DNA of 55,872 nt, filler included, from Dugesia japonica (taxonomy: Eukaryota): the NCBI GenBank assembly GCA_001938525.1. It is 5 parts of 5 records of this genome, joined end to end, with 100 filler letters (N's around TTAATTAATTAA, not from the genome) between each part and the next. Parts side by side here need not be neighbours in the genome. Positions count along the whole stretch, not along the records: positions 1 to 8,933 come from MQRL01584428.1; 4 more parts are not named here. One strand, given 5' to 3'. This document shows positions 1-47,129 of this stretch, one piece after another. The position numbers were made by a program, and so were the translations under genes. The number at the start of each line of letters is the position of its first letter. Within the stretch, counting starts at the first letter, position 1. The notes under the pieces are model-generated. The model had not been told where the DNA came from. It searched no databases and was given only the letters and a program-made list of their open reading frames with translations.

Positions 1-412
1 CCGACCATAATTTAGGGGTATAAAAGATGGTTTTTGAGAGGGAGTGAAAAACGCGCGAAAAATGGCAAAAAAATTGAAAAAAGTGGCAAATTATCAGCTT
101 TTTTAAAAAAGTGAAAATTCTCAAAAATCAAAAACTAAAAAAAGTGTTTTATGGACTAGGACCAAATTTTTTTTTACTAAAAAANNNNNNNNNNNNNNNT
201 TAATTTTTGAGTAATTGAAAAAAAGTTTAAAAAAGTTAAAAAATGATAAAAATATCAACTTTTTTCAAAAAGTGATTAGGATCAAAATTTTATAGACAAA
301 AAAAATAATTAGGAATTTTACTTTTGGATGTGGTTTGTCGCTTGTATTTTGTCGCTTGTNNNNNNNNNNNNNNNNNNNNNNNNNNNNNNNNNNNNNNNNG
401 TAGAATAAAAAA

Positions 413-3400
413 TTAATACCCAAAAGGTAGTGTAGTTATTCCATCTTCTAGAATAAATCTTTTATCATCAAATGAAGTTATTGCTTTTTTAATTTGTTTT
501 GTTTGTTTTACTTGATGTATAGTAGAGTTGATAGAGTAATTAGTTCCTGTTATTATTGAATTATTATATAATACATTTTTATATTGTTGTGCTGTAAAGT
601 TATTTGTATTACTTAATCCTTTGTGTTTCTTTAAATCTTTATTGGAATTCTTATTTTCTTTTACTAGATAGTATTATTTTGCCTTTATGAAGAATGCTTC
701 TTTAATTATTTCATCAGGATATTCATCCTTCATTTGGAATAAATTACTACCAAATAAATCTTTAATTTTAGTTTTTTCTGAAAATTCACTCCAGGATTGA
801 TTAGGATGTATAAATTCAATCATTAGTGAATCTGTATCACTGTAATGTATTCTCCATTGTTCTAAAATATTATTTGGAATATAAGTATTTAATTGATTGT
901 AAACAAAATCATACATGATTAGTTTTGCATAATCTAGTACAAAGAATCCTANNNNNNNNNNNNNNNNNNNNNNNNNNNNNNNNNNNNNNNNNNNNNNNNN
1001 NNNNNNNNNNNNNNNNNNNNNNNNNNNNNNNNNNNNNNNNNNNNNNNNNNNNNNNNNNNNNNNNNNNNNNNNNNNNNNNNNNNNNNNNNNNNNNNNNNNN
1101 NNNNNNNNNNNNNTCCAAAGTCTTTCCAAAGAATGCATTATTTAGTAGTTTGAAAAATGAATTTCCAAAGTCATCATTATTAAATTTTGCGTCATCTCTT
1201 GAATTAATATTTGATTGTATGTAATCTTTTAACCAATATTTAGTAAGAATGTTTATTTTACTACGTACTTTTGATAAAATCATTCCTTGATCAAGATAAA
1301 GATCCAAAACTTGTTCTAGAACTACATAATTATATTTATTTTTCTGAGTCATTATTAGTTTTTCATAATTTGATTGTTTCTGATTCATTAATTTTAATAA
1401 TTCTTTTTGATAATCACTCAAGTCATCATAACTAATTGATTGTTTATCAACTGCTAATGGATAATATTTAGTATTTTCTTTAATATTGTCTGGATATATT
1501 AAATCAACTGTATAAATATAATCCATATAAATCTTTTCTCCATTTACAACTTTATAATTATCATTAGTTCTAATATAAGTTTTGTTATTATCCCAACTCA
1601 TTTCACCCCAAGGTAATCGTTTTGTCATCGATGCTGCGTATAAACTATTCTCATCTAAACATTTTATTGTATGAAATTCATCTGCAACTACATGTCTATT
1701 TCCACATACTCCTGAAAATCCTCCTCTAATTCCCTGTTCAATAGTTAGAAACATGTCAAAGTTTTGAGGATTAGAATTTAATAATTCAACTTTGGATACT
1801 TTCATTCCTATTTCCCATGTAAGTCCTGGTGCAGAGTAACAATATGTTGNNNNNNNNNNNNNNNNNNNNNNNNNNNNNNNNNNNNNNNNNNNNNNNNNNA
1901 TTAAATCAACTGTATAAATATAATCCATATAAATCTTTTCTCCATTTACAACTTTATAATTATCATTAGTTCTAATATAAGTTTTGTTATTATCCCAACT
2001 CATTTCACCCCAAGGTAATCGTTTTGTCATCGATGCTGCGTATAAACTATTCTCATCTANNNNNNNNNNNNNNNNNNNNNNNNNNNNNNNNNNNNNNNNN
2101 NNNNNNNNTCCACATACTCCTGAAAATCCTCCTCTAATTCCCTGTTCAATAGTTAGAAACATGTCAAAGTTTTGAGGATTAGAATTTAATAATTCAACTT
2201 TGGATACTTTCATTCCTATTTCCCATGTAAGTCCTGGTGCAGAGTAACAATATGTTGGATCAATTTNATTCCTATCTAGTGATAATTTCCTAAAGTTTTC
2301 AAAAATGTCTGCTAGAATTATTACATCAAGTTTCATGTAATGTAGTGTGTATTCCATCAAGTTGTTAAAATTTGAAAATTCTTTTAGAAATATTTGATAA
2401 TCTGATTCTGATAACTTACTTTGTTTAAGTACATTAAAAATGTCATCAATATTTGGTTTGTAATTTAATAATTTTCTTTTAACTTCAGAATAATTATTTC
2501 CATTTACATAATCATATGGATAGATTCCTTTTGCTGGTTTGAGATTAAAACTTTTTAAATGAGGATGGTTTTTACTTTTTAATAAATCTTGACCCATCTT
2601 TTCAACTAAATGTCCACTACACATTCTTAGAGAATCTAGAAGTCTCAACCTTTCTATAGAAAATGAAATGTAAACATCATCATTTAAAGGAATTAAATTA
2701 CCAATTTTATTTGGATGAGATTTACACAATTCTTTAAAAANNNNNNNNNNNNNNNNNNNNNNNNNNNNNTGTGCATAAACTGGAATGAAATACTTCTTTG
2801 TAGATTCAAATTTCTTTATACAATTGTAATGTGCATGTCCTCTAGAAGCTCCTGTCCATGTATTTATTGAAAGATAATCACAGGGGGATGAAGACTCACA
2901 GGGTGTTCCACAGGGTGCTCCACCAATTGAATTACAATAATAACATTTTACTCTTGGATCAATATCTCTTTCAAGAAGTGGAATTGAAGAATAACTTGTT
3001 TTTATTAAATTTTCAAATAAACCATCAAAGGTTAATAACCAGTTAATGAATTTTTCTATACAATCTTGTCCTGTGAAGTAATTGTATATATTACTAACTT
3101 TTGGATGATCACTTACTAGATATAATCCTAAAGCAAATGGAATTAAATCGTTGGATGATTGTTCGTTAGATGTGAGTTTATAAGTTTCTATATTAAAGTA
3201 GATTGTAAATGGATTTTTGTTTTTCATGTAGAATTTATTAAAAGAGTATGATTTATTAAAACTAAATTTAATATCTGCTGTTTTCTGTTTTAAACAAACT
3301 ATTTGATGATTAATTAAAGATTCTTTACTAGATTTCCAATTCATACAGTTTATACACAATTCATTACTATGTTTAGACTTTTTATTTATTTTATTAAGAT

Positions 3401-4574
3401 TTCTAATTAAAATGTAATGTTTGTTCCAAAATAACAAATTACATTTATTAACTGTATGTAAAGGATTAGTATCAAAGTGAGAAGAATAGAGTTTTTGAAT
3501 TCTAGGATTAATTTCATGTTTAACAACTTCAAAGATATTAATTTTAAAATCATTTAATCTTTCAAATTTAGGAATATTTTTTATTTCCATTGGCATAGTT
3601 ATTCCTGTCCAGTCTAGTTTATTTGATAGAAGTTTATTTGAGGCTAGAAGATAATTAGAAACTGATTCTCCTAAAGATGGATTAAGATGAGTCATTATAC
3701 AATATTTAAAGCAATTGAAATCATCCTTTGGATTCTTAATATTTAGAATTCCTGTAATATTTTCCCATTCTTTAGGTAATGGAGAATAACCTTGTCCAGT
3801 TAAAGATTCATAATTAGATAATTCAATTGTAAAAGAATTAAACTTTTCAAAAGACCAACCTGATCCTTGAGTCTCTGTTGTAAAAATATCTTCTGATAAT
3901 TGATCCAACATTTTATCAATTGTTTCATTAATCTGACTAGGCATTGTTATTTTCTCTGAATGAGCATCATAATCCTTTACCCAATTTTGATTAGTTGTAC
4001 TATCTTCACCAACAAAGTCCTTTGTATAAGTAGTAGAACAAGTTATTGTAACAGCTACTTTTTGAAATTTATTCAAGAATAGATTAACCATATCTTTCAT
4101 ATTAGAAGTATATTCTTTTAAAAGATTAAAGTTAATTCTATAATTAAATTGATATAAATTTTCAATAGCTGGTTGACTTTCATTTTTATAAATTGAGAAA
4201 TATTTTTTTAATTTAATCATGGCTTGTTGACATGTTTCAATTTCATATTCTGGTGTATAATCTTTAAATAATTCTCTTAGGTTAACTGGAATTTCATATT
4301 CTTCTTCAGCAGTTTCATATTCTTCTTCATCACTTTCTAATTCTTCTTCTAATTTACCTACTTTCATAACATGTTTACGTCCTTGTAAATGTCTATTATA
4401 ATTTACCAAGTTATCAAAATTTATATTACAAATGTGACATCTTCTCCAAACATTTCCAGCATTAGTTAATTCTATTTTTCGTTTATGAGCTTTTCCTTTA
4501 AGATGAGTTTCCAAGTTATAAACACTTCTAAAATGTTGATTACAGATTTCACAAAATTTTTCAACTCTAGCCAT
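413..4574 (-). CDS. pPolB: Protein-primed family B DNA polymerase (Polinton type) with N-terminal zinc fingers; one in-frame stop
   Basis: Motifs GSGWSF, NIKN..D..CFKY, KGIYPYDY, ExoIII Y..LDV..LADIFENFR, GIRGG, motif A DENSLY, motif B KLLNNAFFGKT and motif C YSDTDS (in the 674..1138 frame after the N gap). Past TAA 674-676 the frame stays open (YYLVKE..KKHKG..FDDKRFILEDGITTLPFGY) to the stop at 413-415. Confidence 0.95.
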
Positions 4575-4618
4575 TTCTTAAAGAATAAATTTTGGTATAA
4601 CTAATTTTAAAAACTAGA

Positions 4619-5287
4619 TCATTTTTTTATATTTTCTTTCTGTAACTGACCAGCAATATGAGTCATCAAGATTGGAAAGGTTTTAGCAAAGTGATCAAAT
4701 TGTTGATTAAGATCCTGTTGATTAACACCCTGATTAACACCCTGATTAACACCTTGATTAACAGGTTTAATTAATTCTTCTTTAAGATTATTTGAAATTT
4801 TAATTTCTTCATTACTTAATTTATTATCCTCCAAAGCTTTAACATGAAAGATGAATAATTTATTTTTAGTTTCTTCCAATAGTTTAATTTTCAAAGTATA
4901 TTTAATTATTCTACTTCTTATTAAACTAATACGTAAAGATCCATGTGCCATAGAATATATTATAGGTATACCAGTTATTATTCCTGTAACAATTAATGGA
5001 ATTGTAAAAGATAAAGTAGACATTAATATTATTTTTCCTGAAGCTATTCCTACTATAGTTGATATTCCTACATCAGTAAATCTAACTCCATTATCAAATC
5101 TTGACCATCTTCTTTTTAATTTNNNNNNNNNNNNNNNNNNNNNNNNNATCCATTCTAAATCACTTTCAAAATCTCTTATCCTAGTTTTATTTAATTTATT
5201 TTTTAAATCTTGAATAGTTTCGATAGAACTTAAATCTGGATACATTTTACTAGACTGATAATTTTCTTCTCCAATTAATTGGTTCAT
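4619..5287 (-). CDS. Polinton/adintovirus membrane protein (gasderminX-like)
   Basis: N-terminal MYPDL, then a basic helix, a Gly-rich double hydrophobic segment, and a C-terminal KALEDNKLSNEE resembling the KAL.D..IS.EE motif of this family. A 12-bp repeat encodes (VNQG)n. Confidence 0.7.
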   Translation of the reverse strand: MNQLIGEENYQSSKMYPDLSSIETIQDLKNKLNKTRIRDFESDLEWXXXXXXXXXKLKRRWSRFDNGVRFTDVGISTIVGIASGKIILMSTLSFTIPLIVTGIITGIPIIYSMAHGSLRISLIRSRIIKYTLKIKLLEETKNKLFIFHVKALEDNKLSNEEIKISNNLKEELIKPVNQGVNQGVNQGVNQQDLNQQFDHFAKTFPILMTHIAGQLQKENIKK

Positions 5288-5707
5288 TTTTTAGTAAAAT
5301 AATTTGAGGTTAGTTATTAAATCTATTGGGATAATATAGTCAAAGATTTAAAAAAAGAATTTGATGAAATGGTTATTGAAAATTTTAACCATTTTGTTTT
5401 TTTATCTATTTCATTAGACTTTATACTAAAATTTACTAATTCATCATTTTCTTTTATTTTAAATATAAAGGTTTTAAAAACTACTGGGTTAGATTAATTT
5501 TTTATTATAATTTCAATTTTTTTTAAATTAACTGGATATGGACCATTATAATAATCAACAATTTTTTATTGATTAGCAAATGAAAAAAACTAAACTTAAT
5601 TTATCTTCTTCTTTATTTAATTCAAAATCTAATATTAAATTATGAAATAATAAATAAAAGAAAGAACATAAAGAATCGTGGGAGCTTTTTTCAAAAAAAA
5701 GTCCATC

Positions 5708-6577
5708 TCAATAACTTTTTAGTTTTTTCTTTTTAAAAACTAAAACAGTTGGTAGATCTTCTAAAATCACTTCTACTGATAATTTAAATAATACATTCTT
5801 ATTTTCTAAACTAGTTTGATTTTCTAAAGAATAAGGAAAATAATTTTTAATTTCTTCTTTCAAAGTTTTGAGTAAATCTGGTGAATAAATTTTCTTTTGA
5901 TTTCTTTCTTTTTTTAAATTGGATATAATACATAAAAGATAATCTTTATCATTTTTATACATGTACTTTATCGAATTTAATTTATTTTCTAAATCTGGTA
6001 AAGGATCATTTTTAATTTGATTATAAAAATCTAATTCATATTTTACTTTATTAAATTCTTCTTTCAACTTGTTACATTTATCTGTACTACAAATACTTGT
6101 TAAATTATCAACTTGTTTCTTTAAATCTTCAATTTGTCCAACTAGTTTGTTCTTTAATTTATCAAGTTGTCCAACTAGTTGGTTATTAAATTCATCTTTA
6201 TAAAAATTTTTAATCGGTTTAAAATTTTCAAGTTGGGATAGCATATCACTTTTTAGATTTATAAATTCTTTTTTCCTATCACTTAAATGTAATTTATTAC
6301 TTTCCATTAAAGTATCAATAGTTATTTGTTGTTTAACAATTTTTTTATTAAACTTGTTGGTTATTTCATTAATTTCTTTATTAATCAAATTGTTAACATA
6401 GTTCCTATCATCATACTTTTTATTTTTAACTTCTTCTTGTTCTTCGTGAATTTTTAATTTTAATCTAATTTTATTTTCTACTTTACCATCAAATGCTTCT
6501 AGTAATTGAGAAGCATTTTTATTCTCTAGTGTTTCACCAAACCTATTCATTATTACATTTGAAAAGCTATGAGTCAT
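5708..6577 (-). CDS. Coiled-coil protein of the Polinton (possible fibre or structural protein); may extend to ~5325 through homopolymer frameshifts
   Basis: 289-aa heptad-rich ORF with an MNRFG-type start. Coding-like frames continue downstream across A/T runs (EKSSHDSLCSFFYLL..., VDYYNGPYPVNLKK...). Confidence 0.6.
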   Translation of the reverse strand: MTHSFSNVIMNRFGETLENKNASQLLEAFDGKVENKIRLKLKIHEEQEEVKNKKYDDRNYVNNLINKEINEITNKFNKKIVKQQITIDTLMESNKLHLSDRKKEFINLKSDMLSQLENFKPIKNFYKDEFNNQLVGQLDKLKNKLVGQIEDLKKQVDNLTSICSTDKCNKLKEEFNKVKYELDFYNQIKNDPLPDLENKLNSIKYMYKNDKDYLLCIISNLKKERNQKKIYSPDLLKTLKEEIKNYFPYSLENQTSLENKNVLFKLSVEVILEDLPTVLVFKKKKLKSY

Positions 6578-6601
6578 TTCTTATAGCTAATTTATTAGGT
6601 T

Positions 6602-6714
6602 CATTCTTTAAAGCCATTCTTTAAAGGTATATTAAAGAATGTCTTTTACTTAAAGCCATTCTTTAAAGGTATATTAAAGAATGTCTTTTACTTAAAGCCA
6701 TTCTTTAAAGGTAT
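6602..6714. repeat. 42-bp tandem repeat (~2.5 copies), each full unit containing a 10-bp-stem hairpin
   Basis: TTAAAGCCATTCTTTAAAGGTAT at 6608, 6650 and 6692; stem CATTCTTTAA/TTAAAGAATG. Confidence 0.9.
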
Positions 6715-7192
6715 TCTTAAATTCTTTAATGATATCATCAAATCGTTCATCCGAGGTCTGTTGACTGATTTTGTAAATAAAATAAATACACAATATACCA
6801 CATATTTTTGTTCTCCACGGTTGAACTTGTACTTTGTTCCACTTTGTTGGAGATTTTCCAGTTGACTTTCCAGTTGACTCTTTAATAGAATCTAATGGAG
6901 GTAGCCCATAAGAATCAAAATAATAGTTTTTCCAAGCTCCACTTGGACCTTTACCAACAACTAGTGCAACCCAATGAGAACCTCTTTGATTAGAGTTTTG
7001 ATAGTTTACTATCCAGTTCCCTACTGGCCAGTTGATTGGACAGTAGTTATTAGAATAACTATTCTTGAATTCATCATTCATTACTACATGAACATCAATA
7101 TTTAAAAAATTAGCAATTTCTATTAAATTGAAATTAGTTGTAGATGATATACCAAATGTTTTTAAGAAATCTACTATAGTCCAATTATCCAT
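6692..7192 (-). CDS. Adenain-like (C5) cysteine maturation protease
   Basis: IVN...RGSHWVAL (His), YFDSYGLPP (Asp), QVQ (oxyanion Gln) and ICG..C (Cys). Confidence 0.93.
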   Translation of the reverse strand: MDNWTIVDFLKTFGISSTTNFNLIEIANFLNIDVHVVMNDEFKNSYSNNYCPINWPVGNWIVNYQNSNQRGSHWVALVVGKGPSGAWKNYYFDSYGLPPLDSIKESTGKSTGKSPTKWNKVQVQPWRTKICGILCIYFIYKISQQTSDERFDDIIKEFKNTFKEWL

Positions 7193-7194
7193 TT

Positions 7195-7893
7195 TTATAT
7201 AATCTCTCTTAGATGTAATAGAATATTTATTTTTTCTCCATCAAAATCTATTGTATTAAAATTTTCATCTACTATATTTATTTTTATTCTGGTTATAAAG
7301 TTTATATTAATTTTTGAATAAATAGGATTAGCTGGTCTATCAGTTATTCTATATCCATAAGGAACTGTACCCATTGGTAAACTATGTAATAAATTATATT
7401 CTTTATTATTTAAATAATTACCTTGTACAATGTTACAAATANTATTAATTCTATTAACATCAATAATATTTATTTTATTATCTAAAGTATAACTTTTATT
7501 ATTACTCATTTCATAAATCTTGGGATTGAATCCTAGAATAGTATGAAAGAATGAATCTTTATCAAATTCAAGTTTAAAGTTATTGCTGGCATCCTTATTG
7601 CTTGATAATAATGCTTTACCTNNNNNNNNNNCAAATGTCAACAGTAAACCATCAACAGTCAACCGTTCACCAATTTGTTTTATTTCATAAGCACCAGGAG
7701 TTAATAACTTGTCTTCAACCAGTGAACTGGAATGTATTTTGTATTTATTATTCTTTTTATTAACATTTAAAATCATGTTTTATGTAGTAAACCAGATTAA
7801 AGCTATTTCCCATTTACCTTGTAATTCTATTCCTCTTGTTAAATTAGTTTCTAATTCATGTTCTTGACCATATATTAAAAATTGATGAGACAT
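7195..7893 (-). CDS. Minor capsid (penton-like) protein with an in-frame TAA at 7780-7782
   Basis: Extends upstream of the tracked ORF: MSHQFLIYG..LQGKWEIAL..FTT*NMILNV..NNK, then PGAYEI, LGF, ICNIV.G.Y.N, PYGY.I...P.N.IY and DFDGE....LHLR, the pattern typical of Polinton pentons. Confidence 0.8.
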
Positions 7894-7961
7894 TTACAAG
7901 TATTTATTTTTGAGCCTACAAAAATAAATTCTTGATTTACAAGTATTTATTTTTGAGCCTA
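7893..7961. repeat. 26-bp direct repeat plus a 16-bp-stem hairpin
   Basis: TTTACAAGTATTTATTTTTGAGCCTA at 7893 and 7936; arms 7897-7912 and 7919-7934 with one mismatch. Confidence 0.9.
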
Positions 7962-8831
7962 TCATACTTTTCATTAGTAATTAATTTAGAATCCAATAGT
8001 TGATTAATTATTTTTAAAAAATCTTTTTCAAGATTATCATGACCAGCTTTTATTGCACTGGTGATTATTACAANNNNNNNNNNNNNNACAAACTTTTCAA
8101 ATAGTTTTATTGGTCCACCAATGGCTCCAGTTAACTGGATTGAGTTAGTAAGATTAAGTCCTTCACCTTTTACAGTATTAATTTCTTTATATTCAGGAGG
8201 ATTTTTTAATTTTTTAAATTCCACATCAAATATTCCTTTTTTCTTACATGCTTTAATATAGTTACTTGAATGAGGAATAGAATAATTAAAACCAGTTAAA
8301 TAAATTCCTTTAGCTTCATCATCATTAGATCCATAACCAAACATTAAATTTAATACTTCTTTATTTAATGGTATTTCTCTCTCTTGATCTTGATCAGGAA
8401 TATTGATAACAAAATATTTCTTTAATTCTCCATCTCTTATTCTTTGTTTTAAATAAATTATATNTGAACCTATTTTAAAAGAATTAAAAGTCTCATGATG
8501 ATCATAAATAATATAAGGAATTAAAGTAGGAGGTAAATCATATTTATTAGTAACTATTAAATCTTCTTTTTTTTATTCTTAATCTATCATCCTTTACAAG
8601 ATCCTTTACAAGAACCTTATCAAGAACCTTTACAAGATCCTTATCAGTTTGTTCTTTAACTGGTTCTTTAACTGGTTCTTTAATAGGTTCAGTTATTTTA
8701 CCAGTTGAGAACTGTCCAGTTGAGAACTGGTTAATAAAATAAACTTGTTCAANAATTAAGTTGTTATATTTCTCTCTTCCTATAATTTGTTGTTTTAAAA
8801 TTTTTATTCTATCTTCAATCCATTCAGTCAT
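7937..8831 (-). CDS. Conserved Polinton protein (tentatively PZ-like) split by a frameshift at the A8 run (plus-strand T8, 8567-8574)
   Basis: The frame of ORF 7937..8344 is open upstream to ~8570 (EDLIVTNKYDLPPTLIPY...LNLMFG) and joins ORF 8547..8831 at the homopolymer. It contains KGEGL and a C-terminal I.AGH...IIN.L....LI..Y motif. Confidence 0.65.
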
Positions 8832-8845
8832 TTTCTTTATATTTT

Positions 8846-8932
8846 TTATGGCTTGTAAGGATTAAGATATAAACCTTTACCACTTGGTATAATTTCTATA
8901 CCATTTTTAAATTTCTTTTTATTAATAACTTT
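8846..8932 (-). CDS. C-terminal fragment of a Polinton core-like protein
   Basis: Translates KVINKKKFKNGIEIIPSGKGLYLNPYKP*. A GxGLYLxPY ending is common in Polinton basic core proteins. Truncated by the contig end. Confidence 0.6.
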   Translation of the reverse strand, partial: KVINKKKFKNGIEIIPSGKGLYLNPYKP

Positions 8933-8933
8933 T

Positions 8934-9033
8934 NNNNNNNNNNNNNNNNNNNNNNNNNNNNNNNNNNNNNNNNNNNNTTAATTAATTAANNNNNNNNNNN
9001 NNNNNNNNNNNNNNNNNNNNNNNNNNNNNNNNN
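8934..9033. other. Artificial contig spacer
   Basis: N44-TTAATTAATTAA-N44 (stops in all six frames), repeated at 18024-18123, 31091-31190 and 39973-40072. Confidence 0.97.
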
Positions 9034-9690
9034 ACATATCAATGAGGTATTCCATGGAGAGTGGCATTTCCTGATAATATTATTCTCGAAAAGGTTTTGA
9101 ATAGCTTTTTCAATTTTAGATTCTAAGTTCATTGGTTGTCTATATGGGTTTACATTGATTGGTTCAACACTTGTGATTATTTTGTGTCTGGTCAGATGTG
9201 TACGTCCTAAATCCTATTTATCTGCCATAAAAGCATTTTCTTTACTTTCAATTATTTTCAATAACCGTTGATGCTCTTTAATCTTCAAAATATTTAAGTC
9301 TCTTGTCAACCGCTCTCCCTTTTAATTTGTCTTCCGAATTTTGCTTCATTATTGCAAATGTAATTTTCGACTTTTTCATTCGTTTTGCTATCGACCTAAT
9401 ATGGGAAATATTATTACTCTTGAAGTTGCTTTAAATGTTAGAACTGGAGAGATAATTGACGAAGTGCGCACATAAGTTACTTTCTTATTTACAGACAAAG
9501 TGACACCAGATCTAATTGGAGGAAAAGATATGCAGTGGATTTTGGGAAACCAGCTTATACGATAGGTCGATAGCAAAAATTAAATTTGCAATATTGAAGC
9601 AAAATTGAAGCATATGCGGTACAAAGAGAAAATGAGTAGCAATTAGAAAGAAATCTGGAAAAATCTTAAAAGGTTTCTTAAGGAAATAAT
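9034..9690. mobile_element. Rearranged Ty3/Gypsy pol fragments
   Basis: 9034-9398 (minus) encodes ..INVNPYRQPMNLE..SPWNT (start of RT). 9400-9690 (plus) matches the protease end and integrase tail of the 45370-45925 copy. Confidence 0.8.
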
Positions 9691-11204
9691 TATTAATTAA
9701 TAAATTTAGCAAATACAAACTGACAAAATTCAATATTAAGATTTAATTAATTCAATTAAATTCTAATTATGTCATCAAGCTTGTGTTGAAGTAGTGAAAT
9801 AAATTATGTAAAACTATTAGTTGTTATTTGTAAAACGAATTACCAATTGAAGATCTACATAATAAAATATATAGAAACTATAAAAAGTATATAAATAAAA
9901 ACACAAATTTACAAAAATTTTTAAATAAAATTATAATTTTAATGGTTTTAAAAAAAGTATAATATTCAATTATAATAAAGATTAAATAAAATAAAATGAT
10001 TGTGTGAAAATAACAATTTAAAAAAAATTTTAAAAATTTTAAATATAAAAACATTATTAAAATAAATAACAAAATACAACTGATAATTTAACATTAAGAA
10101 GATTTTTAATTTAATTGAAAATTTTCATATTAAATCTAAAATTAAATTTATAATTTAAATTAACCAATAATATTATAATGAAATATTAACAACTAGTATA
10201 GTTTAAATATTTCAAAATATTATTACTTATTATCATATTAATGAAGTAGAGAATTGTCGGAAATTTTAATATTTATAAAACAACAATTTATTTTGATCGA
10301 AACCATTACTTTATTTTAATGAATTCTCAAATGGGTTGAATGGTTAAGTGCAACAATTATTCTCGCAATAATTGTAATTATGTAATTGTATAATTATTTA
10401 ATAATATATCAACAATCGTAGATATCGGACTTTCATACTTTTAACTTTGAATTGACATGGTTTACCTACAAGAAAGCTCATTTTCTTTGTTACTTCTTGT
10501 GACGATTCATCTCTTTAGCTAATATTAGTTATCATAATTAATGAATTAATGGGAAACATTAGGGTTTGTACGGAAATAGTTTTACAGTGCAAGTGCACAT
10601 TTTCGGGCACCTTTTTGATGCTAGTTTGTGTGTGTAAGTGTGTATTGAAAAAACGTTATTGGATATTTTTCTGTCCAATCTAGAACCAATTATATTGTAT
10701 AATGTATATAAAGAGAAAGTTTAATTTATATTTCATTATTTATAAAAATGACAGACTTGAAGAAAACTTTATTCCGGAAATATAAAGTGTTGAAAAAAAA
10801 TGATATTCTTTAATTATTTTAATCATATTTATTTTTTAAAAAAGAATTATGTAAATATTACTTTGATTGTTTGTTGGATTTACTTGAAGTTCACATACAG
10901 TATAATTTTTATCAATATTTTCCATCGTTTCTTTTATTATCAAATCTAAATTCATGGTAATGGAATATAAAATTTCATTTTCTTTATATATTTCATGAGT
11001 TATGCCCATGAGTTGTATAATGCATGTTAATGGAATGCTTATTCATGTTCATTGTTAGTTCGGTTTTGAAAACTCATCGAATCATTAACATCAGAACTCA
11101 AATTCATTACAATGATTTATTAAAATAAAAAACTATAGCAACACTAATTGAGGTTTTAAACAAATTAAATTCCTCTTTTAAATAGGTGATCGTTTCTTAA
11201 AATT

Positions 11205-11535
11205 TTTAAAAATAAATTTTCAGTTTATTTATTAAAATTTTAATTTCAAAATTTAAAAACAATTATTTCTTAGTCATTGGATTTTTTAAATCAGATTTTA
11301 AAATAAATTCTCAATCTATTTGTTAAAATTTAATTTCAGAATTTAAAACAAATACTNNNNNNNNNNNTGATTTTTTAATAAGATTTTTATAAATAAATTT
11401 TTTGTTTACTTATTAAAATTTAATTTCAAAATTTAAAACAATTACGTATTAGCCATTTGACTTTTTAAATCAGATTTTATAAATAAATTTTCAATTTATT
11501 TGTTAAAATTTAATTTCAAAATTTAAAACAATTAC
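11205..11535. repeat. ~90-bp tandem repeat, ~3.6 copies
   Basis: AAATAAATT...TTAAAATTTAATTTCAAAATTTAAAACAATTA recurs at about 11210, 11300, 11391 and 11481. Confidence 0.85.
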
Positions 11536-11599
11536 TTTTTTTTTATTTTATTCTGAAATGTCCGTAAGTTCCTTCATTTCATTTGAATTTCTGTTGATT

Positions 11600-12750
11600 T
11601 CTTTGCTGGTTAGTTTTTTCATATACTTTTATCTTCTACTTTTTCTTTCGAGATTTGTTTCTATCTTCCATTGATTTTTCTTCGTTCTTTGAATTCAAAA
11701 GTTTCTGCGTCTTTATTTTGTTTTTAGATCTTCTAGTTTTGCCCATAAGCTTAGCTTTCTTGCTGCTAAGATTGATCTGATACTTCGCAATTTTACCTTT
11801 TCATGGAGCTCTGTGATTTTTTGTCTATCTCTCCTGGTCGTTTCTAGGCATTTCCTTCGGCATCTATTCAATAGGATATGTAAGTCGTTTTCATATTTCT
11901 TTGTGATCGCCAAGGTTTCTGCTCCATATCTCAAGGCTGGAATGGCTATACTTTTTATAATTTGGACTTTGGTTTTGATTTTGATGTATGTTCTTTTTAG
12001 TATACTTCCCAGCATATTCAGTTTGCTTTGTTATACTTCTATTTTTGTTTTAATTTCTTTTTCATATTATCCTTTGTTTTCGATAATCTACCTGAGGTAT
12101 CTGAATTCTGATACTATTTCGATCTCTTAGTTTTCGATTTTTACCTTTTTGTTTCTTTCATCCTTTCTATTAAGCTTTTGTATTTTTTATGCTAATTTTA
12201 ATGCCCATTGGACTCATACATTTTTTTAGTCTTCCTAGATTATCATTTAGACCTTTCACTGTTTCGTCAATTAAGTACAAGTCGTCAGCATATGCTCCAT
12301 ATGCAAAGTAGATGTTTCTTTTGTCTTTGTTTTGTAATGATGTGACTGTTATAAACTTTGCTTTCTTTATTAAATGATCAAAGACGACGATGAATAAGAT
12401 TGGACAAGTATAAATCCTTGTCATACTCATGTTAACATTTTAAATTTTTCTTTACTCATGTACCTTTCTACTTCGTTGTACAATTCTTTTATTATTCTGT
12501 TCATTTTTTATGGTACTCCTATTGGTTTTAGACATTCCTACATGGTATATCTCGAGATGCTGTTGAATGCCTTTTCTCGATTGATGAACGCACATATTAC
12601 ATTTTTGTTTTTGTATCTTGCTTTTTCTTGGATTCTTCAAAGTATGTATATGCTGTTTACTGTTGATCTTTTTTCTCTGAATCCGAATTGATTATATTGT
12701 AGTGTTCTTTCAGTGTATTTTTGGAGTCTTTTTGTTTTGCCATTAATCTA
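11600..12750 (-). pseudogene. Non-LTR retrotransposon RT (RTE-like), 3' part, decayed
   Basis: QFGFREKRST, CAFIN.EKAFNS, AYADD, FRYL and IAIPALRYGAET, with many stops. Confidence 0.85.
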
Positions 12751-15930: not shown

Positions 15931-16009
15931 ATTTTCTATCAGTTTCGTCAGCTACAATATTAATTCTACATTTTCTTCTTTTCTATTCTTCTCGAGCTTG
16001 ATGTTTTGT

Positions 16010-18023
16010 AGCTTGTACATTCAAAATTTGCTCAAGTGAAGTATAGATTGAACATTGTAACTTCGTGGATCAAACCATATGGACTTATTAGAACTGCAAT
16101 AAGTCCTTGTCAATCCTGATGGATTTCAGGAAGCTGAACTTAGAACCATATGTTACCAGATTTCTAATAGTTTTGCATAATTACAAATCCATCATTTTCT
16201 TTATATTTTCGACCGATTTCTTATACAAAATGTTGTTAAATAGTTTGCAGTAATTTCCCTCAAGCTTAGTATTATATACTGCTCTTAATGCAGTGTTTAT
16301 TTCAATGTAATTTTAAAATATACGAGCTTGATTAAATCTTATTGCTCTATGGACCAATTTAACTTAGAATCCTTATCTTATTTACATTTATAACAGTATT
16401 GTTGCTACTAGTAAATCATTAAAATAATCANGAATTTCTTCTGGAATAATCATTTCCACCTTCAAAGTGTAAATAGAACAACGCATCCATATCCATTGTC
16501 TTACATTCTTGTAATAGTTATTCTAAATCAGTGTGTACCCACTCAAAGTTTTTATATAGTAATTTTTTACTAAGAGGTAATTCATACAGATTAATAATAT
16601 AAACTTTTAAAAATCAGTGTTTTCACTTGTTGTGCTTGTTAATAAATGTCACTACATCCTTTATCTTCATCCGCGATTTCATCCCATTTTGATGGCATTT
16701 CTGTTGTTTCAACGTGTACTTGAAAATTGGTTGCATAATTATATGGTAATATCCCTTTTGACGTTGTTATAAACTTATATGAATCTATAAACTTTATCGT
16801 ACCAAATTTAGTTTTATGTACTAATAAGCACAAAGACCTTTCTAATATTGATGGAATACAATTGAGACTCCATTGCTGGAATTTGCTTATTCCATATTTT
16901 AAGATCTGATGCAAATCATACCCTCTTAAATTATAAAATACAACCGGTACTTGCGTTTTTACACTTCTGCTCAAATTGCCTTTAGAGCATGCTGCGCCCA
17001 TATACTGATCAGTAAAGTGATCATGATCATGAACTGTTGCATACAATGTTTTCTTGCACATATTACAATTAGTGTCTGCAGCGATCTTGATATTATAATT
17101 TTCTTATTCTAGTTTCTTATGTAGAATGGAGTCACTAAATTCTGATCGATATCTTGTATCTCCTAAAGTAAATCATATATACAGGTATCTGCAATGAATT
17201 GTTTGTATGTTATTTTGTTGGTAAAGTTGTTTACTTAAAACATTCCTGATGAAACCAGTATATGCTTCTGAAATTGAACTTAAACTCTGAGCCTTTCTCT
17301 GCAAGCATATTATATAGAGTTTTACCAGTTTGAATTTTTTCAAAAATTAACACATGTTTCTGAAATGCTAATTTATACTTAAATACATTTAAGTAATTTG
17401 AGTATCAATATAAACAGATTTATACACCATCTAGTTTAACATCACGATTCATTAATCTGTTCAAATTTATTACAGCTGCGTAATGGTCTTTATTTCCATT
17501 CTCTAGCAACAAATATATTTTTTCCCATCGACCACTTTAGACTTGTGAATAATATCTTAATACTTAATCTAAATATTCTTGAAAACATCTTCACCGACAT
17601 CTTGTACTTTATTTGCATTCCACACAAAACATTGATTGTATATCAAGGATTTTTTTTCAAATTTTCTTTTATTATCCAACCTCATTGGTTTATTGAACTC
17701 TAGCTCCGACATGTATTTTTGATAAATTATTGCTCTTTTTCTATGATTTTCATCATCCATATTCTTTTAATTATTACTAAGATGGTGTAAATAAAGCATT
17801 TATTATCCTTATTCTTGATACTAACAATTGCCATTTTCTTTTTCAGATTTGCTAAGGCTGATATATAATTGTAACTACTTATAGTTTTAACCTTGATGAT
17901 TTTGAATTTCACTTCTAAAATCTTGAAATTGTTTTGGTTAATTGCTTTTTTCCCTCTTGGAAAAAATTATCACTTAATTGGATGGCTCTATTTGATATTC
18001 TGAAAATATCTTCATCTTCATCA
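16010..18023 (-). pseudogene. Second, heavily decayed Polinton-type pPolB
   Basis: IVSIKNKDNKCF, HYAAVINLNRL, C..C...VHDHDHFTDQYMGAAC...NL, VPVVFYNLRGYD, KFIDS, KGILPY and KLFNN...K..ENIR. Confidence 0.85.
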
Positions 18024-18123
18024 NNNNNNNNNNNNNNNNNNNNNNNNNNNNNNNNNNNNNNNNNNNNTTAATTAATTAANNNNNNNNNNNNNNNNNNNNN
18101 NNNNNNNNNNNNNNNNNNNNNNN

Positions 18124-21719: not shown

Positions 21720-22575
21720 AAAAACGACTGCAACATAATAATGCAGTTTATTAATTTAAACGGGAACTACTTCACTGAAAGACCAGAGTCTCTAGAACAT
21801 AGTTGGAAACTATAAAATTAAAGGCTAATGAACCGTTTAAGAGTATTTATATAGATATCAGTAGACCATTCCAAGAAACCTTAGGAAAAATATATCTGTA
21901 TCATAATAGATAAATTTAGCAGATAAATATGCTTAACAGCCCTAGTTAAACAAGATGATGAATCAATAAAGAAAACGATTGTGGATAAATGGATACTGAG
22001 ATTTAGTGCCTCAAAAGAGATACATATAGATTGTGGGAAGATCTTCGAATCGAAAGTTATCAAAGAGATGACAGATTACATGAATATAACAATTTGCTTT
22101 TCAAGTCCATATTCTCATAATACAAACGGAATAGTAGAGCGGCAATTCAGAACAATCAGAGATTACATCAATTCAACATTAAAAGATAAAAAGTGGACAG
22201 AGTTAATACCAGAAATTGAATATACACTAAATGCAACAAGCCAGAAGACTTTAGGGATAAATCCAGCAGAGATGGTATTCGGTAAGCAGATACATAGAGA
22301 AAGATGGTTCAATAATGGAGAAAAGAATGAAGAATCCGGAGAGTTGACACCAACTTGTTTCGTATATGAAAAAATCAAATACGAAACAATTGAATATGTT
22401 TAAAAACCTTGCAAAAAAAAGAATAAAGAATCCGGAGAGTTGACACCAACAGAGAGATATTTTCAAGTTGGAGACAAGGTTCTAATCAAGGTAGAAAACA
22501 GATCAAAAGACAAAGAAATATATACAGGTCCTTACAAGGTGATAAAACAGATTCATAAAAGACGATATCTGGTAA
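21720..22575 (+). mobile_element. Ty3/Gypsy integrase fragment
   Basis: EPF..IYIDI, IIDKFSR, IHIDCG..FES, SSPYSHNTNG.VER and a GPY tail. Internal ~97-bp offset duplication (AAGAATCCGGAGAGTTGACACCAAC twice). Confidence 0.88.
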
Positions 22576-24719: not shown

Positions 24720-27700
24720 TCTTGAAAATCAAGCAAATATCATGAAAGACGAACCCGAAAAAAGGAATGCGAGTCTGCACTTGAATTCCGAGTCAACGGC
24801 TCCATTCCGAAGATCTGGATTAAATTAATCGTAGGATTTTACTAGGCAGATCAATCTAGAATTTGGATTTCCTAGACTAGACTTAATTTAAAAAATTCAG
24901 CCTACCTAGATAAAACGCAAACAAAAGGATTAATGAAAAATATCTGAATTTCGAGTTAAGAGTAAAAACATTCTCCACTATATATTTGAAAACAAAAGAT
25001 CACCAGTGGAAATATCAAGAGTTTTTATCCCGAATGGATTAAGAAGCGAAAAGTTAAAAGAATCCTTTGAACTCAAACCAAAGTTAAATGACGAAAAACG
25101 TCGAGATTCGGCTGCAAAGCTTGATAAATTTGTTGCAAAAAGTAATTTTAATGCTGTCAAAGGAATCTATGCAAGTGTAGTTAAAAAATCCGCTTTCGAA
25201 CCCAAATATAATAAAATGGGAAGTAATTACAAAGAACAATATTTTCATCACAAAGAAAATATTCTATTATTTCTAGAAAACCGACAAACGATTTAATGAT
25301 TGGTAATAATATGCAAAAAATAAAAGATATAAATGAAGACCAAAGAAGAGATTTACCAAAACATTCTCTGAAATATGTAACAACAAATTTTTATAATAGA
25401 TATCACAATAAAGCTCCTCCCAAAGTAGAATTCCTACAACCTGGTGCTTGTTTTTTCTGTGGTGAAATCAACCATAGAAGAATAAACTGTCCTTTAAAAA
25501 TAGGTGTTTATATGCGGTGAAGAAGTCCACGCTTTTAGAAATTGTACATTATTACCAAGAGGCCACAATAATCAAAGAATATTATGTATACCAGAACAAG
25601 AGAGAGAGAAGAATCTTTAAATAGAAACTCACTAATTGATTTTGAACATGATGCAATAAATTCTTTTATAATAATTTAAAAAATGTCCAGGTTGCATTAA
25701 AAAATCTAGATGTTGATAGAAGGTCTGATGTTAAACTGATATATCAAAAAAGTGATGGTAGAAATTGAAGCACAGTAAATTGTAATGAAAATTTTGTAGA
25801 TATGTTATGAAATTCTGGGGTGTCTGTCTCAGTGATGAGTGCAGAAATTTGGAAAAAGATTGATTCACCAAAAATTCATTTTTCAAATGTAATGGTAGCT
25901 GGAGTATTTTCTTAAAAAAGTGAAAAATGCATTGNAAAAACCAGAATTAAATTATTTTGGAATAGAAGCATATAGAGATAGAAATAACTATTGTTAAATA
26001 CATTTGTCCAAATTTTTTTCCTGATATCGATATGATGAAAGCGTTTGGAATGTGAATAAAAGAGATCAATTTCATAGATTCAAAAGATGTTATATGCAAA
26101 AATAAGAAACATAATAATAAAAAAATGAATATACTCAAGCTAAATGTCATCAATAGAATAATTGAATTACTTGATAAATATGACCACATAATTATGAATT
26201 CAAAATTCGATGTTGAGTTAACAAATATGACGATTCATAACATAGAAACTAAAAAAGAACCCGTATTGATCAATCCAAGAAGACAACCTATGCATTTAGA
26301 AGGTGAGATAGATGAATTAATACAAAATCTATTATTAGCAATTATTATATAACCTGATCGAAGTCCATGGAATTCTTCATTTGTGATTGTTCCAAAAAAA
26401 AGATGGTTCTATCAGAATGTGTCTTGATTTTAGGAAATTGAATTCAGCAACTGAAAAATAGTCATTTCTGTTCCAGATATAAATTTGTTACTGGATACTC
26501 TAAATGACTTTATGTTTTCCTCATCAATCAATCTTGGATTTACTTGGATTTAAATCGATCTTTACCAAATTAAAATAACCGAGAAGTCTAAATAAAAACA
26601 GCTTTCGGGAAAAAAATGGAACAATTTTGTTTAATTCGCATGCCGTTCGGCTTATGTAACATTCCTGAAACATTTCAAGAATTAATGCATAATCCTTTAA
26701 ACACGATGTTATTTAAAATAATAGCTTCGATCAAAATTTTGTTTTTTTTTTGGTATTTGATAACAATTCGATATTTCGACTTTGTCTTCTTCAGTAATAA
26801 TTATTTACTCGAGTACTCGTTTATTTTGATGACATTTTAATTTTTGGTCAGAACCAAGAAATTCATGATAAACATTTACAAAATGTGTTGGAACTAATTG
26901 AGCAATCTGATCTCAAGATTTATCTTGAAAACTGTATATTAAGTGTATCAAAACTCAAATTTCTTAGTTATACAATCAGTTCTAAAGGTGTTGAAAGAAA
27001 TGATGATATGATTACTAAAGAAAAAGCCTGTTCATCTAAAATGTGCAACCAAAATTCAAACTTTCTTGGAATTGACAAATTACTACCGTAGGTTTATAAA
27101 AGATTACGCAACAATTTCCATTATATGAAGCAATAACCGGATCAAAAAAGTTTTAGAGTGGACAGAAGAATGTGATATCAGCTTTAAACTACTGAAATAA
27201 AAATTATGCAGTTTGTCCAATCTTGGAATTTTCAAATCCTCAAAGCAAAATGATATTAGACATAGACGCAAGTTTCAATGCAATTGGTGCTGAGTCAATT
27301 GTTGAGAGATGTGGAAAGTGTTCATGCATCTCGTAATTTGAATGATCATGAAAAGATTTATTATGTAACCAGAAAAAACTATTGGCGTTGCACAAATTTA
27401 TGATTAATTTCAAGCATTATCTTTACGGAAAAAAGTTCATAGTCAGAACTTACAATAAGGCATAATGAAATCTATTTCACAGTTTAAGACGTGGATTAAA
27501 AACCTAGCAGAATTTGATTTTGGTCTTCAATTTCGTAAAGGCATTGATAATGGGAGTGCTGATGGATTATCAAAAATAGGAGAAAGTTTATGCGCTCAAT
27601 GTTTGTCGCCTCATCACGATGCAAAACGTAAAAAATCTGGAGTTAGAAGAATAAATACTGTAGAAAGTTCAAATTATGATAAAGAAAGTATCATAAAAAT

Positions 27701-30877: not shown

Positions 30878-31190
30878 CTAAAATTAAAAATTGCACAATG
30901 TGGTGTTAGAAATTGATTTTTTAAAATAGAAATAAATGAGTTCCTTCTAATGTTTGGATCATTACAGGGAAACTCATTATAGCATTGAAATACTCACATT
31001 ATTAGAATTTTCAATATTTACATTTAATTATTAGGTCTACTCTTTGAGAAGGTGGCTATTTAGTAAATAGCTCTAAATTCACAATACAACNNNNNNNNNN
31101 NNNNNNNNNNNNNNNNNNNNNNNNNNNNNNNNNNTTAATTAATTAANNNNNNNNNNNNNNNNNNNNNNNNNNNNNNNNNNNNNNNNNNNN

Positions 31191-39512: not shown

Positions 39513-40099
39513 ATAAATATTTAAAAGTAAAACAAATGTTAATGAAATAAACAGTTTAACAAAAAGTGAAATGAAATTCATTTCTGTTATCTCAGGTGAA
39601 ATCAAATCACAATATTTTAACCATTAATATATTCATACAATTAATTTCATAAAAATAGATTTGTACTTTTGGAATCAATTTTAAGGAAATTTGTTTTCGT
39701 TTAATAATTTTCTTTTTATTAAAAATAGAAACACATTATTAAATAAGATCTACTAGTGAATAATATTTTTAAAAATCAATTTGCTTATATATTCTGCAAT
39801 TTATGATTAGAATATATTTTTTGGTAATTCTTTGATTTTGTAAAGAGCTTTTAGTAGCTTTAACAGAAGCAGTTGAAAATAAACAAAAATACATAAACAA
39901 ATGCATTATAGGATTTATTAAGAAGTAATTTCTTTATAACCGGATACTCAAAAATGAAAAATAAATTACTTTNNNNNNNNNNNNNNNNNNNNNNNNNNNN
40001 NNNNNNNNNNNNNNNNTTAATTAATTAANNNNNNNNNNNNNNNNNNNNNNNNNNNNNNNNNNNNNNNNNNNNAAATAAAAGTAACATTTCTGTAAAACC

Positions 40100-42932: not shown

Positions 42933-45900
42933 TCATAGTTCTTCGTGAAAATAATTAGGAAAATAGGTAACAAAGATATTTAATAATTCCCCTGCGCTAG
43001 CACGATTGGAACTATCAGAATTCACCATTTCATCGATAAGCAATTTCAACTTGTCTGAATTATGTAAATCATCTGGAAACTCATAAAGAATCTTCCTGGT
43101 ATTCATAATTATTTCAATAAATTCATATTGTTTCAATGAACTATATGGTTTCGTACCTAAAATAGAGATAGTTCTAAGTTAATAAATACGAAAGGTTTCA
43201 AATATCAACATAATTTACGTTGTAGTTTAATATTAATGATTAAACTTGTTCATAAAATGAAAAATCAAACCTGAAAAAATCAAATCTCAATGATGTTAGC
43301 TCCAAGAGACCAAATATCGAAAGAACATGAATATATCTCATCATTCATAATTTCAGGAGCCATGTAATGAAGTGTTCCACAAAATCTTGCATTTGATGAA
43401 GTTTCCTCTTCTACTTTCGATAATGGAAAACTAAATCCAAAGTCTATCAACTTTATGTTTCCCAAGGCATCAATCAAAATATTATCAGCTAATTATCGAT
43501 CACTTCATTAAAACAAAGTATTTCATAATAAAATTTATTACGTTTAATATCCCGATGAATAATCGGTTGGCCATGCAAAAAGTCAAGAGCTTCAAGAAGT
43601 TGTTTGATAATTTTCATTAATGAAAGTTCAGCTTTTTCCATTTGGTTTCGAAGAGATCCCTTAGAAAATTATTAATAAATATAAATTATATTTTATCGAA
43701 GAAAACATTATCATATAAGTTTTTCGTTTTAGTACTATGAGGAAATAATTATTATTTAATAATTTTGAGCCAATAGATAATTGAGTAAATTCTGGATAAA
43801 GATTTTAAAGCTACTATTCAATTATCATTTCTCTTATTACATTTAGAGTTGAAATAAGAAAATAAATAATGTCTAAAAATATTAGTTCTGATTTGAATAA
43901 CCAATTACCAATTAAAGATTTACCTAACATGGTGGTAACGGTAAATACCAATTCTATTACAGAAAAGTTATCACCAAAAGTGTTCTGCAGAGGGGATGAT
44001 ATCGAGAAATTCAAGAGCGATAGGAATTGTATTTTGAAGCTAAAAACATCACCCATGTGAAACAACAGGAGAGAATAGTTTCTTGTTTGTTAGATGAAAA
44101 TTTGTTTGAAGAATATGTAAAGACGTTTAAAAAAGTTGAAAGTTTTCAGTCTCGCTTACATTGGCATTTGAGAAAGAGAAAGATATCATCAAAGATTTTC
44201 AAAATTTGATTAACTACAGGCGTGGAAATGTAGAGATTCAAGTTTATTTTAGAAATGTAAAAGATTTAGTAAAAAGGTTATTTACAAATAAAGATTTTAC
44301 TGAGGAAAAAATGGTAGCAAAGTTACTAGTATATTGTTAAGATATCAAAAAAAATGAAGAAGTAACTTTGCGAAAACGAGAGAATATAGAAGAAATTGAA
44401 AAAACATTAACGTTAGTAGATCCAGTAGAGAAAAACGGAGATCAAGTCAATGCAGTTAGAAGTTACTCGAGAGTTACAAGTAAAAATTATCAGAAATCTG
44501 TAAATCATAGCGTGAATAGACATGTAGATCAAAGAAAGAAAAAACAAAATATCGAATGTTGGTTATGTCATAAGATTAGTCATACTAAAGCAAATTGTCC
44601 AACGAAAAGTGATAGAGTGTTAGACTTGCCATAAAACAGGACATATAAGTTGAGATTGTCCAAAAAAAACAACAAAATGTTTTGATTGCGGAAAGGTTGG
44701 ACATATTAGAAGGTTATGTCAAAAAGTGAGGCATAAACGATGTGGTAATGGTAGACATAGAACAGAAGAGTGCTACACAAATTTAAAAATGAAAAGAACA
44801 ACTGAGAAATTTATGACTGTAGAAAGATCAAGAAACCGATATAATCGAGTACACGCGATTGAAAATGAATATGTTAATACAAAAAATGAATATGAGAAAG
44901 TGTATGAAAGTGATTCCGAAAGGGAGTACCCAAATGGCAGGGCTCCGCCAGTAGAGGAGTTGGTTGGATCCATCCATTGTTAAATGAAGTAAGTAATTAT
45001 CCTAAGGTTCGAATAGCGAGATGATATAGGAAAGGTTACAGAAAAAGTATACAGGTTCTTAAAAAGGGAAAATTTTGCAGATGATAGAAATGTAGAATGG
45101 GTTGGAACAATAGAAGCAGAAAAGAACACAAATTTTTCGTATCATAAATTGCAAGGCAGACCAAGTGTTACGGTATCTATTCAAGGAAATAAAGAAGAAT
45201 TTCTATAAGATACAGGGGCTCGAATTAACGTGATGAGTTTGAGTTGTTTTAATAAATTACGAGAAGGAAATTTAGAAATTTGTGATGAAAGATTACGTTG
45301 TATAAATAATAGTACACTTGAAATTGTTTGGAAAGTTTAAATTGTTGTGATAATTGATGAAGTTTGCAAAGAGATTACTTTCTTAGTTGCTGAAAGAGTG
45401 ACACCAGATCTGACAGGAGGAATAGATATGCAGAAAAGTTTTGGATATCAGCTTATGCAAAAGGATAACAGCAAAACGAATGAAAAGTAGAAAATTACAT
45501 TTGTAATATTGAAGCTCAATTTGGGAAACAAATTGAAAATGTAGAGCGATTGACAAGAGCTTTAAATATCTTGAAGATTAAAGATGATCAACGGTTATTG
45601 AAAATAATTGAAAGTAAAGAAGATGCTTTTTTGGCCGATAATTGGGATGTAGGACGCACACATTTAAGAAGACACAAAATAATAGTGGTATGAGTCAGAC
45701 GTGTCAAATAGAAATAAAGAAAACATTTTAGACGTGATTACTAAAAGAGAATTCAAAGTGGGTGATATGGTACTCATCAAGGTAGAAACAAGAAATAAAA
45801 ATCAAAACAGATTTGAAGGACCCTATCAAATAATTGAGAAAATTTACGAAAAATGGTATGCAGTATAAGGAGAAAATGGACAGCGATTAGAAAGAAATGT

Positions 45901-47129
45901 GGAAAAACTTAGAAAGTTTCTTACGAAGGGGGATACACCTCTGGGTTTAGAATATATTAATTGAAAATTTTTGAATACTTTTTTTATCATTTTCTGAATT
46001 ATTTTTATTAAATAGTTCAAATTATTTAAAATTTTTATCTTTAATAAATTTTCAACAAAATAATTATAAATCTGTATCATTATTTTCAAAATGTATAGAT
46101 GTCTTATTCTCCTTTATTAAATTATATTCTTTCATAAATTTTTTTGTGTTCTTTTTTAAAATAACTTTCATTGAAAGATTTAAAATTTTCATAAATATTT
46201 TTAAAATTATCATGAGTGAAATGGATCATATTTTAATACTTTTTTGATCATTTTCTGAATAACTTTCATTAATTTTTTTAATTTCTAAAATACTTTATTA
46301 AATTTCACAATAAATAAGGAAGCAAACATTTACCGTTTGGTTCTTAATAAATTAATTGAAATTTTTGAACCCATAATAAAAAATCACAATTTTTTTAATA
46401 ATATTGAGTATCAAGTAAAAACAAAGAAAGAAAGAAACATCGTTAATACTTGGAGATTAATGATGATTTATCAAATTGAAATGGTTAATTAAAAATCAAT
46501 CTTGCACATTGTTTTCAAATATATACGCTATATTTCCGGAATTTCAATAAAGATCATAAATTTGGATTACATTTTCTGAAAAGTGTTCAATTTCGGCAAA
46601 TTTCGGCTTTTTCCAAAAGAAATCCAACCGCTATTGATGAGTTTTAAAAAATACGAATACCAATGATGTCTTTAAGAAACTACTAAGAGAAATTTTAAAC
46701 TTTCTTACTACAAGGATAGAATAGTAAAATAAATGTTAAATAAAGATGTGAAAAGTAAATCGTTATCACGTTAGTTAATGAGAACTTATTTCGATAGTTG
46801 CGGGAAAGAAAATGATTGTAAGTTGTATTTCAATCTAAAGTGTTTAAATTAATCACAAAAATAACTAACTGTTTCTATGAACTCCATGAAAACCAATTTG
46901 TTCTGCTTTATTTCAAACCCACTATAATATTGTATAATTCGCACATTTCGTATAATTTCAATAAAACCGTTTATATTTCCTTCAATAAATTTTGATGAAA
47001 TACTTTTCTTATCAAATTTCTTATATGCAAATTTATTATTTGGACAGATTATTGATTCTTTGAAGTAATAGATTTTTCCAAAGTCTCCCTCAAAAATCAG
47101 TTTGCCTTTGATTGTTTTTGAGAATATGG
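42933..47129 (-). pseudogene. Spliced Ser/Thr protein kinase gene, probably disrupted
   Basis: Exons ~47129-46870 (EGDFG, AYKK, MEFIET), 43659-43542 (GSL..HRDIK), 43488-43271 (PDNIL, DFG, GTLHYMAPE, DIWSLG) and 43156-42933 (GTKPY..R.SAGELL). All junctions are GT-AG and phase-consistent once the 5-bp duplication at 43277-43286 is removed. The 5' end is not defined. Confidence 0.85.
43800..45935 (+). mobile_element. Internally deleted Ty3/Gypsy element inside the kinase intron
   Basis: gag with CCHC knuckles and protease DTGARINVMS, then a jump at ~45687 to the integrase GPY tail, ending in the purine tract GAAGGGGGA. Confidence 0.88.

Follow-up and report, generated by a model that had tools for sequence, protein, structure and literature searches.

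A fragmentary, lesion-bearing Polinton locus in the Dugesia japonica genome assembly

Introduction

The 55,872-nt stretch of the Dugesia japonica assembly GCA_001938525.1 analysed here (the window) opens with a block of minus-strand genes (positions 413–8933, scaffold MQRL01584428.1) that belongs to a Polinton, an element also known as a Maverick or adintovirus. The original prediction, made from the sequence alone, described this block as a nearly intact and comparatively recent insertion of a possibly undescribed endogenous lineage. The question raised by the locus is whether it is such an insertion or a worn member of a larger family. It is highly probable that this block represents only part of one damaged copy, or else a mosaic assembled from several copies, of a multicopy, diverged Polinton family with an Alpha-type polymerase. 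The scaffold itself would then be a dead or wrongly assembled remnant of such a family.

The window consists of five scaffolds joined end to end, with one 100-nt artificial spacer (N44-TTAATTAATTAA-N44) occurring four times, and neighbourhood across the spacers has no biological meaning. The element occupies the whole first scaffold (1–8933), and its continuation past 8933 is absent from the window. Frames of at least 100 aa cover 59% of this scaffold vs 5–21% in the other four, and its longest stop-free frame reaches 602 aa vs a mean of 87 and a maximum of 144 in 200 base shuffles, a coding signal far above chance. Its GC content is 0.25, vs 0.26–0.28 in the other scaffolds. The element had been said to carry far fewer lesions than the surrounding transposons. 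This comparison falls away, since artificial spacers join the scaffolds and the more decayed transposons are therefore not physical neighbours of the element.

Gene content of the element

The array comprises seven minus-strand genes, a number that includes the 28-codon stub at the end of the scaffold (Table 1). The tight packing originally described holds for most of it, with intergenic distances of 2–114 nt, but not for 5290–5707, where a decayed stretch lies.

Table 1. Positions of the element's genes, the internal repeat and the artificial spacers in the window
Feature	Position	Strand	Basis
pPolB (protein-primed DNA polymerase B)	413..4574	-	PF03175, PF12874, motif alignment, 66 homologs
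PW-like gene, 222 aa	4619..5287	-	hidden Markov model (HMM) built on 4 related-locus genes, E 1.5e-6; tblastn to related locus L035, E 3e-10
Decayed coding-like stretch	5311..5718	-	three-frame reading: several stops and frame changes
289-aa open frame, coiled-coil-like	5708..6577	-	open reading frame
Adenain (Ulp1-like maturation cysteine protease)	6692..7192	-	open frame; alignment and profile matches
Penton (single jelly-roll minor capsid protein)	7195..7893	-	809 homologs, structure match
PZ-like gene, two frames	7937..8831	-	C-terminal motif only; weak assignment
C-terminal stub, 28 codons, gene truncated by scaffold end	8846..8932	-	GxGLYLxPY motif; pairwise E 8e-5 to L019 protein
Identical repeat of 1498-1849	1900-2257	.	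160 nt + 149 nt at 100%; each part bounded by N gaps
Artificial spacers	8934-9033, 18024-18123, 31091-31190, 39973-40072		identical 100-nt sequence four times

The polymerase shows, in order, two N-terminal C2H2 (matrin-type) zinc fingers, an acidic stretch, a terminal-protein region, a vOTU protease, an exonuclease and a palm. Pfam matches lie above the cut-off for PF03175 in two pieces (E 7e-9 and 4e-9), and PF12874 is matched at E 2e-11; the best homologs are 29–31% identical in local alignment. When aligned with 21 homologs, the protein keeps the GSG motif, a Cys and a His that fit a vOTU protease, and palm motifs A and B, while palm motif C is found in its C-terminal piece. Cys289 and His387 are invariant across the 22 aligned pPolBs. 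The vOTU protease of pPolB has been described by Krupovic 2024 (PMC11161782), and the assignment made here follows that description at the sequence level. Under the scheme of Starrett 2021 (PMC8502044), the predicted OTU domain together with the PF03175-type polymerase makes this protein an Alpha PolB.

Two features of the exonuclease depart from the usual pattern. Its first motif deviates from the conserved one, and it contains an endonuclease-VII-like insert (~2780–2960, residues 540–600) that has extra cysteines and is without the usual DH motif; this degenerate insert is likely a structural remnant. The N-terminal C2H2 finger pattern also occurs in 11 of 100 other pPolBs and is thus not unique to the window.

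The other two hallmark proteins named in the original prediction, adenain and penton, were likewise confirmed. Adenain keeps the complete catalytic set (His73, Asp93, Gln124 and Cys131) in an alignment with nine homologs. A 10-row adenain profile searched against structures matched S273R of African swine fever virus (E 1e-9) and the adenovirus protease 1AVP (E 7e-8), and the single sequence gave no significant match in the PDB. For the penton, a word-based homolog search recovered none of 236 candidates; an exhaustive search then succeeded, with a best identity of 42%. The suggested structure prediction proved informative here: the penton model, with X at the breaks, has a predicted local distance difference test score (pLDDT) of 95 and matches the mavirus penton 6G41 (E 1e-8), as well as the Sputnik and adenovirus pentons. 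The penton sequence profile reached only E 0.056 against the PDB.

The remaining genes are less firmly assigned. PW and PZ are presumptive names based on gene order in related loci, with no search having labelled either family. The PW-like gene has a hydrophobic centre, one N gap and no stop, and 218 family members were found with an alignment; its product is likely a membrane-active virion protein. Its structure model is of low confidence (pLDDT 56, predicted template-modelling score 0.22). The PZ-like match is weak (HMM E 0.0014; hhalign E 0.002 with a probability of 14% for the C-terminal part, and nothing for the N-terminal part). None of 15 pattern matches of the PZ-like protein in viral contigs was confirmed, and the PZ-like piece found nothing in the Atlas.

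Five of the 109 related loci also have the GxGLYLxPY motif of the stub, which is located C-terminally in pX-like/PLA2X proteins of related elements. The 289-aa frame showed no relative in the related loci, Pfam or the Atlas: the only Pfam match was a weak one to Apolipoprotein far below the cut-off, and the best Atlas score of 0.80, under 0.9, is a lead. The decayed stretch that follows it on the minus strand had no match in Pfam or in the 109 related loci, and is possibly the C-terminal part of the ~289-aa gene or an eighth gene. Short tandem repeats lie at gene ends of the element or in low-complexity linkers, at 6608–6733 (42 nt), 8591–8650 (12 nt) and 4719–4763 (12 nt).

Lesions and assembly state

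The description of the element as nearly intact could not be upheld. The polymerase gene is interrupted by a premature stop at 674–676 and by five N gaps; it also contains a duplicated segment, the repeat 1498–1849/1900–2257, which is read as a scaffolding artefact. In the penton gene, codon 38 (7780–7782) is a premature stop and two N gaps are present, and the PZ-like gene has a frame break in a homopolymer near 8563–8572. Altogether, the element scaffold contains 13 N gaps, with 398 N in total. The adenain, PW-like and 289-aa genes have open frames.

A reassigned TAA codon, considered as the cause of the two in-frame TAA stops, was ruled out. Since TAA terminates pPolB, adenain and penton at conserved C-termini, the in-frame TAA codons are true stops. 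Judged from its sequence, the copy as assembled could not yield full-length polymerase or penton.

Copies of the element in sequencing runs

The stretch 2770–8050 is present in 10 of the 24 runs listed, which come from five studies with one organism label. No RNA run is listed as containing the stretch, which carries no weight on expression. Contigs of four runs were placed on 1900–8933, the region that this comparison covers. Two of these runs belong to separate studies, one from 2014 (X1, which may be the window's own source) and one from 2025 (X5).

In X1, 5770 of 8.83 million contigs match: 875 are at least 99% identical to the window, 1558 are 95–99%, 2678 are 90–95% and 659 fall below. 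X5 gives nearly the same picture, with 6019 matches among 10.23 million contigs (914, 1540, 2833 and 732 in the same classes). The commonest class in both runs is therefore that of contigs 90–95% alike, and all 30 bins are covered. Variant shares also agree between X1 and X5, at site 2321 (53% and 54%) as well as at site 2696 (73% and 78%). Because both the variant shares and the identity spectra match in two DNA runs of separate studies, the sequence represents an inherited multicopy family, high-copy and ageing. The Polinton/adintovirus identity and the endogenous state originally proposed are supported. Inheritance was likely through the germline, and the family likely spread by self-copying and integration.

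These counts bear directly on the idea that the element is one recent and nearly intact insertion, with the genes it lacks located immediately beyond the contig break. This idea can point to the high coding density of the scaffold, to the open adenain, PW-like and 289-aa genes, to the 875 of 5770 X1 contigs that are at least 99% alike, and to some lesions that are unseen in the reads. However, the commonest contigs are 90–95% alike, at several sites not one of the counted contigs agrees with the window, pPolB and penton carry stops, and neither a junction nor a target-site duplication (TSD) was found. A single recent insertion has only a slim chance of being the right account; the comparatively recent age first proposed had, in addition, leaned on a transposon comparison that crosses scaffold joins.

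With respect to expression, a raw oligo-dT RNA run (X12) yielded 30 matching reads among 13.6 million, all of them partial and none at 95%. This single run thus gives little sign of poly(A) expression.

Missing genes and termini

Several observations weigh against reading the stretch as a copy of a multicopy Polinton family. No major capsid gene (HMM of five related capsids), ATPase gene (HMM of seven) or Polinton integrase gene was found in the window. No terminal inverted repeat (TIR) pair was seen in 1–12000, neither end of the scaffold shows a terminal motif, and no TSD or host junction was seen. Depth is about 15–42 for window-identical contigs and 230–5,800 when summed, values that are not a copy number, have no single-copy control and are taken only as a sign of many diverged copies. 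Furthermore, run X8, which is RNA by guess, gives 371 contigs that may be transcripts or DNA and are given no reading as expression. Finally, the penton stop is shared by none of the contigs counted (16 in X1, 14 in X5) and the PZ-like break differs in most. Because the contigs differ from the window at these two sites, some of the lesions may belong to a single copy or have arisen in assembly, and other copies of the family may be in better condition.

The negatives for capsid, ATPase and integrase are to be read with the truncation of the scaffold in mid-gene at 8933. It is plausible that all three genes are located past this point, given the gene truncated there and the related loci that carry them. 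Three complete related loci (L011, L019 and L002) show the same gene set plus a double jelly-roll capsid (PF21738), an A32 ATPase and an rve integrase. The only integrase matches in the window, at 21882 and 28126, are on another scaffold near retroelement pieces. The element termini are probably outside the scaffold, and no contig placed on the stretch spans the whole element or shows its continuation past 8933. The segment 1–412, downstream of pPolB, is AT-rich and non-coding; it contains runs of A or T as well as a short direct repeat and could be inner TIR sequence, with no terminus visible.

The same absences could be explained by a capsid-less or non-autonomous derivative that no longer has genes for the major capsid protein, ATPase or integrase and relies on a helper to move. 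None of the three is in the window, and Polintons that have lost morphogenesis genes have been reported (Krupovic 2014, PMC4028283). However, in that report the capsid, protease and ATPase are lost in concert, whereas penton and adenain are retained here. A gene is truncated at the scaffold end, and the 8.9 kb present fall short of the 12.7–24.6 kb of intact vertebrate elements (PMC8097293). Such a derivative is very improbable. Least probable of all is an adintovirus that is free, whether as an episome or as an infecting virus, or an element from a symbiont or food organism that was sequenced along with the host: the element does fill its scaffold with no host flank, and adintoviruses of environmental origin occur in genome data sets (Starrett 2021, PMC8502044), but the variant spectra match between the 2014 and 2025 runs of different studies, the copies show a 5–10% spread, core genes carry stops, and the GC content is like that of the other scaffolds.

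A partial copy, or an assembly mosaic, of a multicopy family is the explanation retained. From known Polinton biology (PMC4028283, PMC8097293, PMC11161782), replication, integration and particle formation would be expected of the intact members, and sister copies would be expected to carry the genes for capsid, ATPase and integrase. The polymerase would copy a linear genome by protein priming, and the vOTU domain would likely cleave off the terminal protein. The integrase would insert the copies into chromosomes with 6-bp duplications. Particle assembly would depend on penton, a double jelly-roll major capsid protein and the ATPase, and maturation on adenain, and the PW-, PZ- and pX-like proteins would likely be internal or membrane-active virion parts.

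Other features of the window

The next scaffold holds another Polinton-type pPolB, far more decayed (15958–17924, minus strand), with pieces in three frames and an endonuclease-VII motif. It has no DNA or protein match to the pPolB of the first element, and its best matches are to other pPolBs at 31–41%; given the lack of a match to the first pPolB, it represents a second Polinton family in the same host. An AT-rich 90-nt tandem repeat in four copies is found at 11187–11540. Decayed retroelement pieces with an rve integrase, a zinc knuckle and a reverse transcriptase lie at 21882–22499, 25227–25517 and 26801–27088. Protein kinase fragments on the minus strand (43283–43492 and 46849–47412) are probably exons of one or more host genes.

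Relationship to known Polintons

The pPolB phylogeny proposed in the original prediction was built with FastTree (101 rows) and with IQ-TREE under LG+G4 (30 of those rows); pPolBs shorter than 1000 aa were left out and the trees are without Beta PolB or Repbase rows. Within this sampling, the window pPolB is sister to the zinc-finger pPolB P0001 (support 99 and 98) and near L031, on a long branch apart from the Parasteatoda adintovirus PolB. The pairing with P0001 could be partly artefactual, both being long branches. As in the window, the pPolBs of P0001, L031 and L035 have N-terminal C2H2 fingers, L031 occurring with a Polinton integrase and L035 with a PW-like gene. They share only 29–35% identity with it, and the window pPolB is remote from every protein searched.

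Another related pPolB, P0008 (1504 aa), has extra precomputed Pfam hits, PF14528 and PF14890, which we take to be homing-endonuclease and intein families. These hits suggest an intein in this Polinton polymerase.

No description of the window's Polinton family was found in the open-access main-text literature, and Repbase or supplements may contain one; six short motifs were not found in the part of the PMC8502044 supplement that was searched. Planarian Polintons have already been treated as piRNA-silenced repeats (PMC8532177). Capsid-bearing Polintons are widely distributed and already catalogued. Damaged partial copies are usual, 134 elements being intact out of thousands of loci in vertebrates, and Maverick particles have not been observed so far according to Barreat and Katzourakis (PMC8097293). 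A more ambitious reading, that of an undescribed, deep-branching lineage with a zinc-finger polymerase, massively amplified in a much-sequenced laboratory animal and with the whole virion module in some copies, is unlikely, with a modest chance of being right. If it were true, one could look in this host for particles formed naturally by an endogenous polintovirus. The family would matter more if intact copies exist, a high-copy family in an easily studied laboratory animal being a place to seek particles.

Among described elements, Table S1 of PMC4028283 lists Repbase Polinton families of AT-rich model invertebrates: Polinton-1_SM, -2_SM, Polinton1_SM and Polinton2_SM from Schmidtea and Polinton-1_HM from Hydra. 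These are multicopy genomic families, and for Polinton-1_SM, -2_SM and -1_HM the table gives capsid, penton, ATPase and protease; they are set beside the window by description only.

The Alpha-PolB Polintons/Mavericks (adintoviruses; PMC8502044), such as that of the Parasteatoda house spider (P0017), offer the fullest comparison. The window pPolB is 28% identical to that of P0017 and lies on a separate branch. Unlike adintoviruses, the window element has tandem N-terminal zinc fingers, a degenerate endonuclease-VII-like insert, all its genes on one strand and a 289-aa gene without relatives, and capsid, ATPase and integrase are not seen in the window. Both have the OTU-bearing PF03175-type pPolB, adenain, penton, the pX-like GxGLYL motif and a tight intronless gene array. 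In all likelihood the element is a distant but otherwise unremarkable member of a group that is well known: its architecture is that of known Polintons, to which this copy adds a distant branch and not a new kind.

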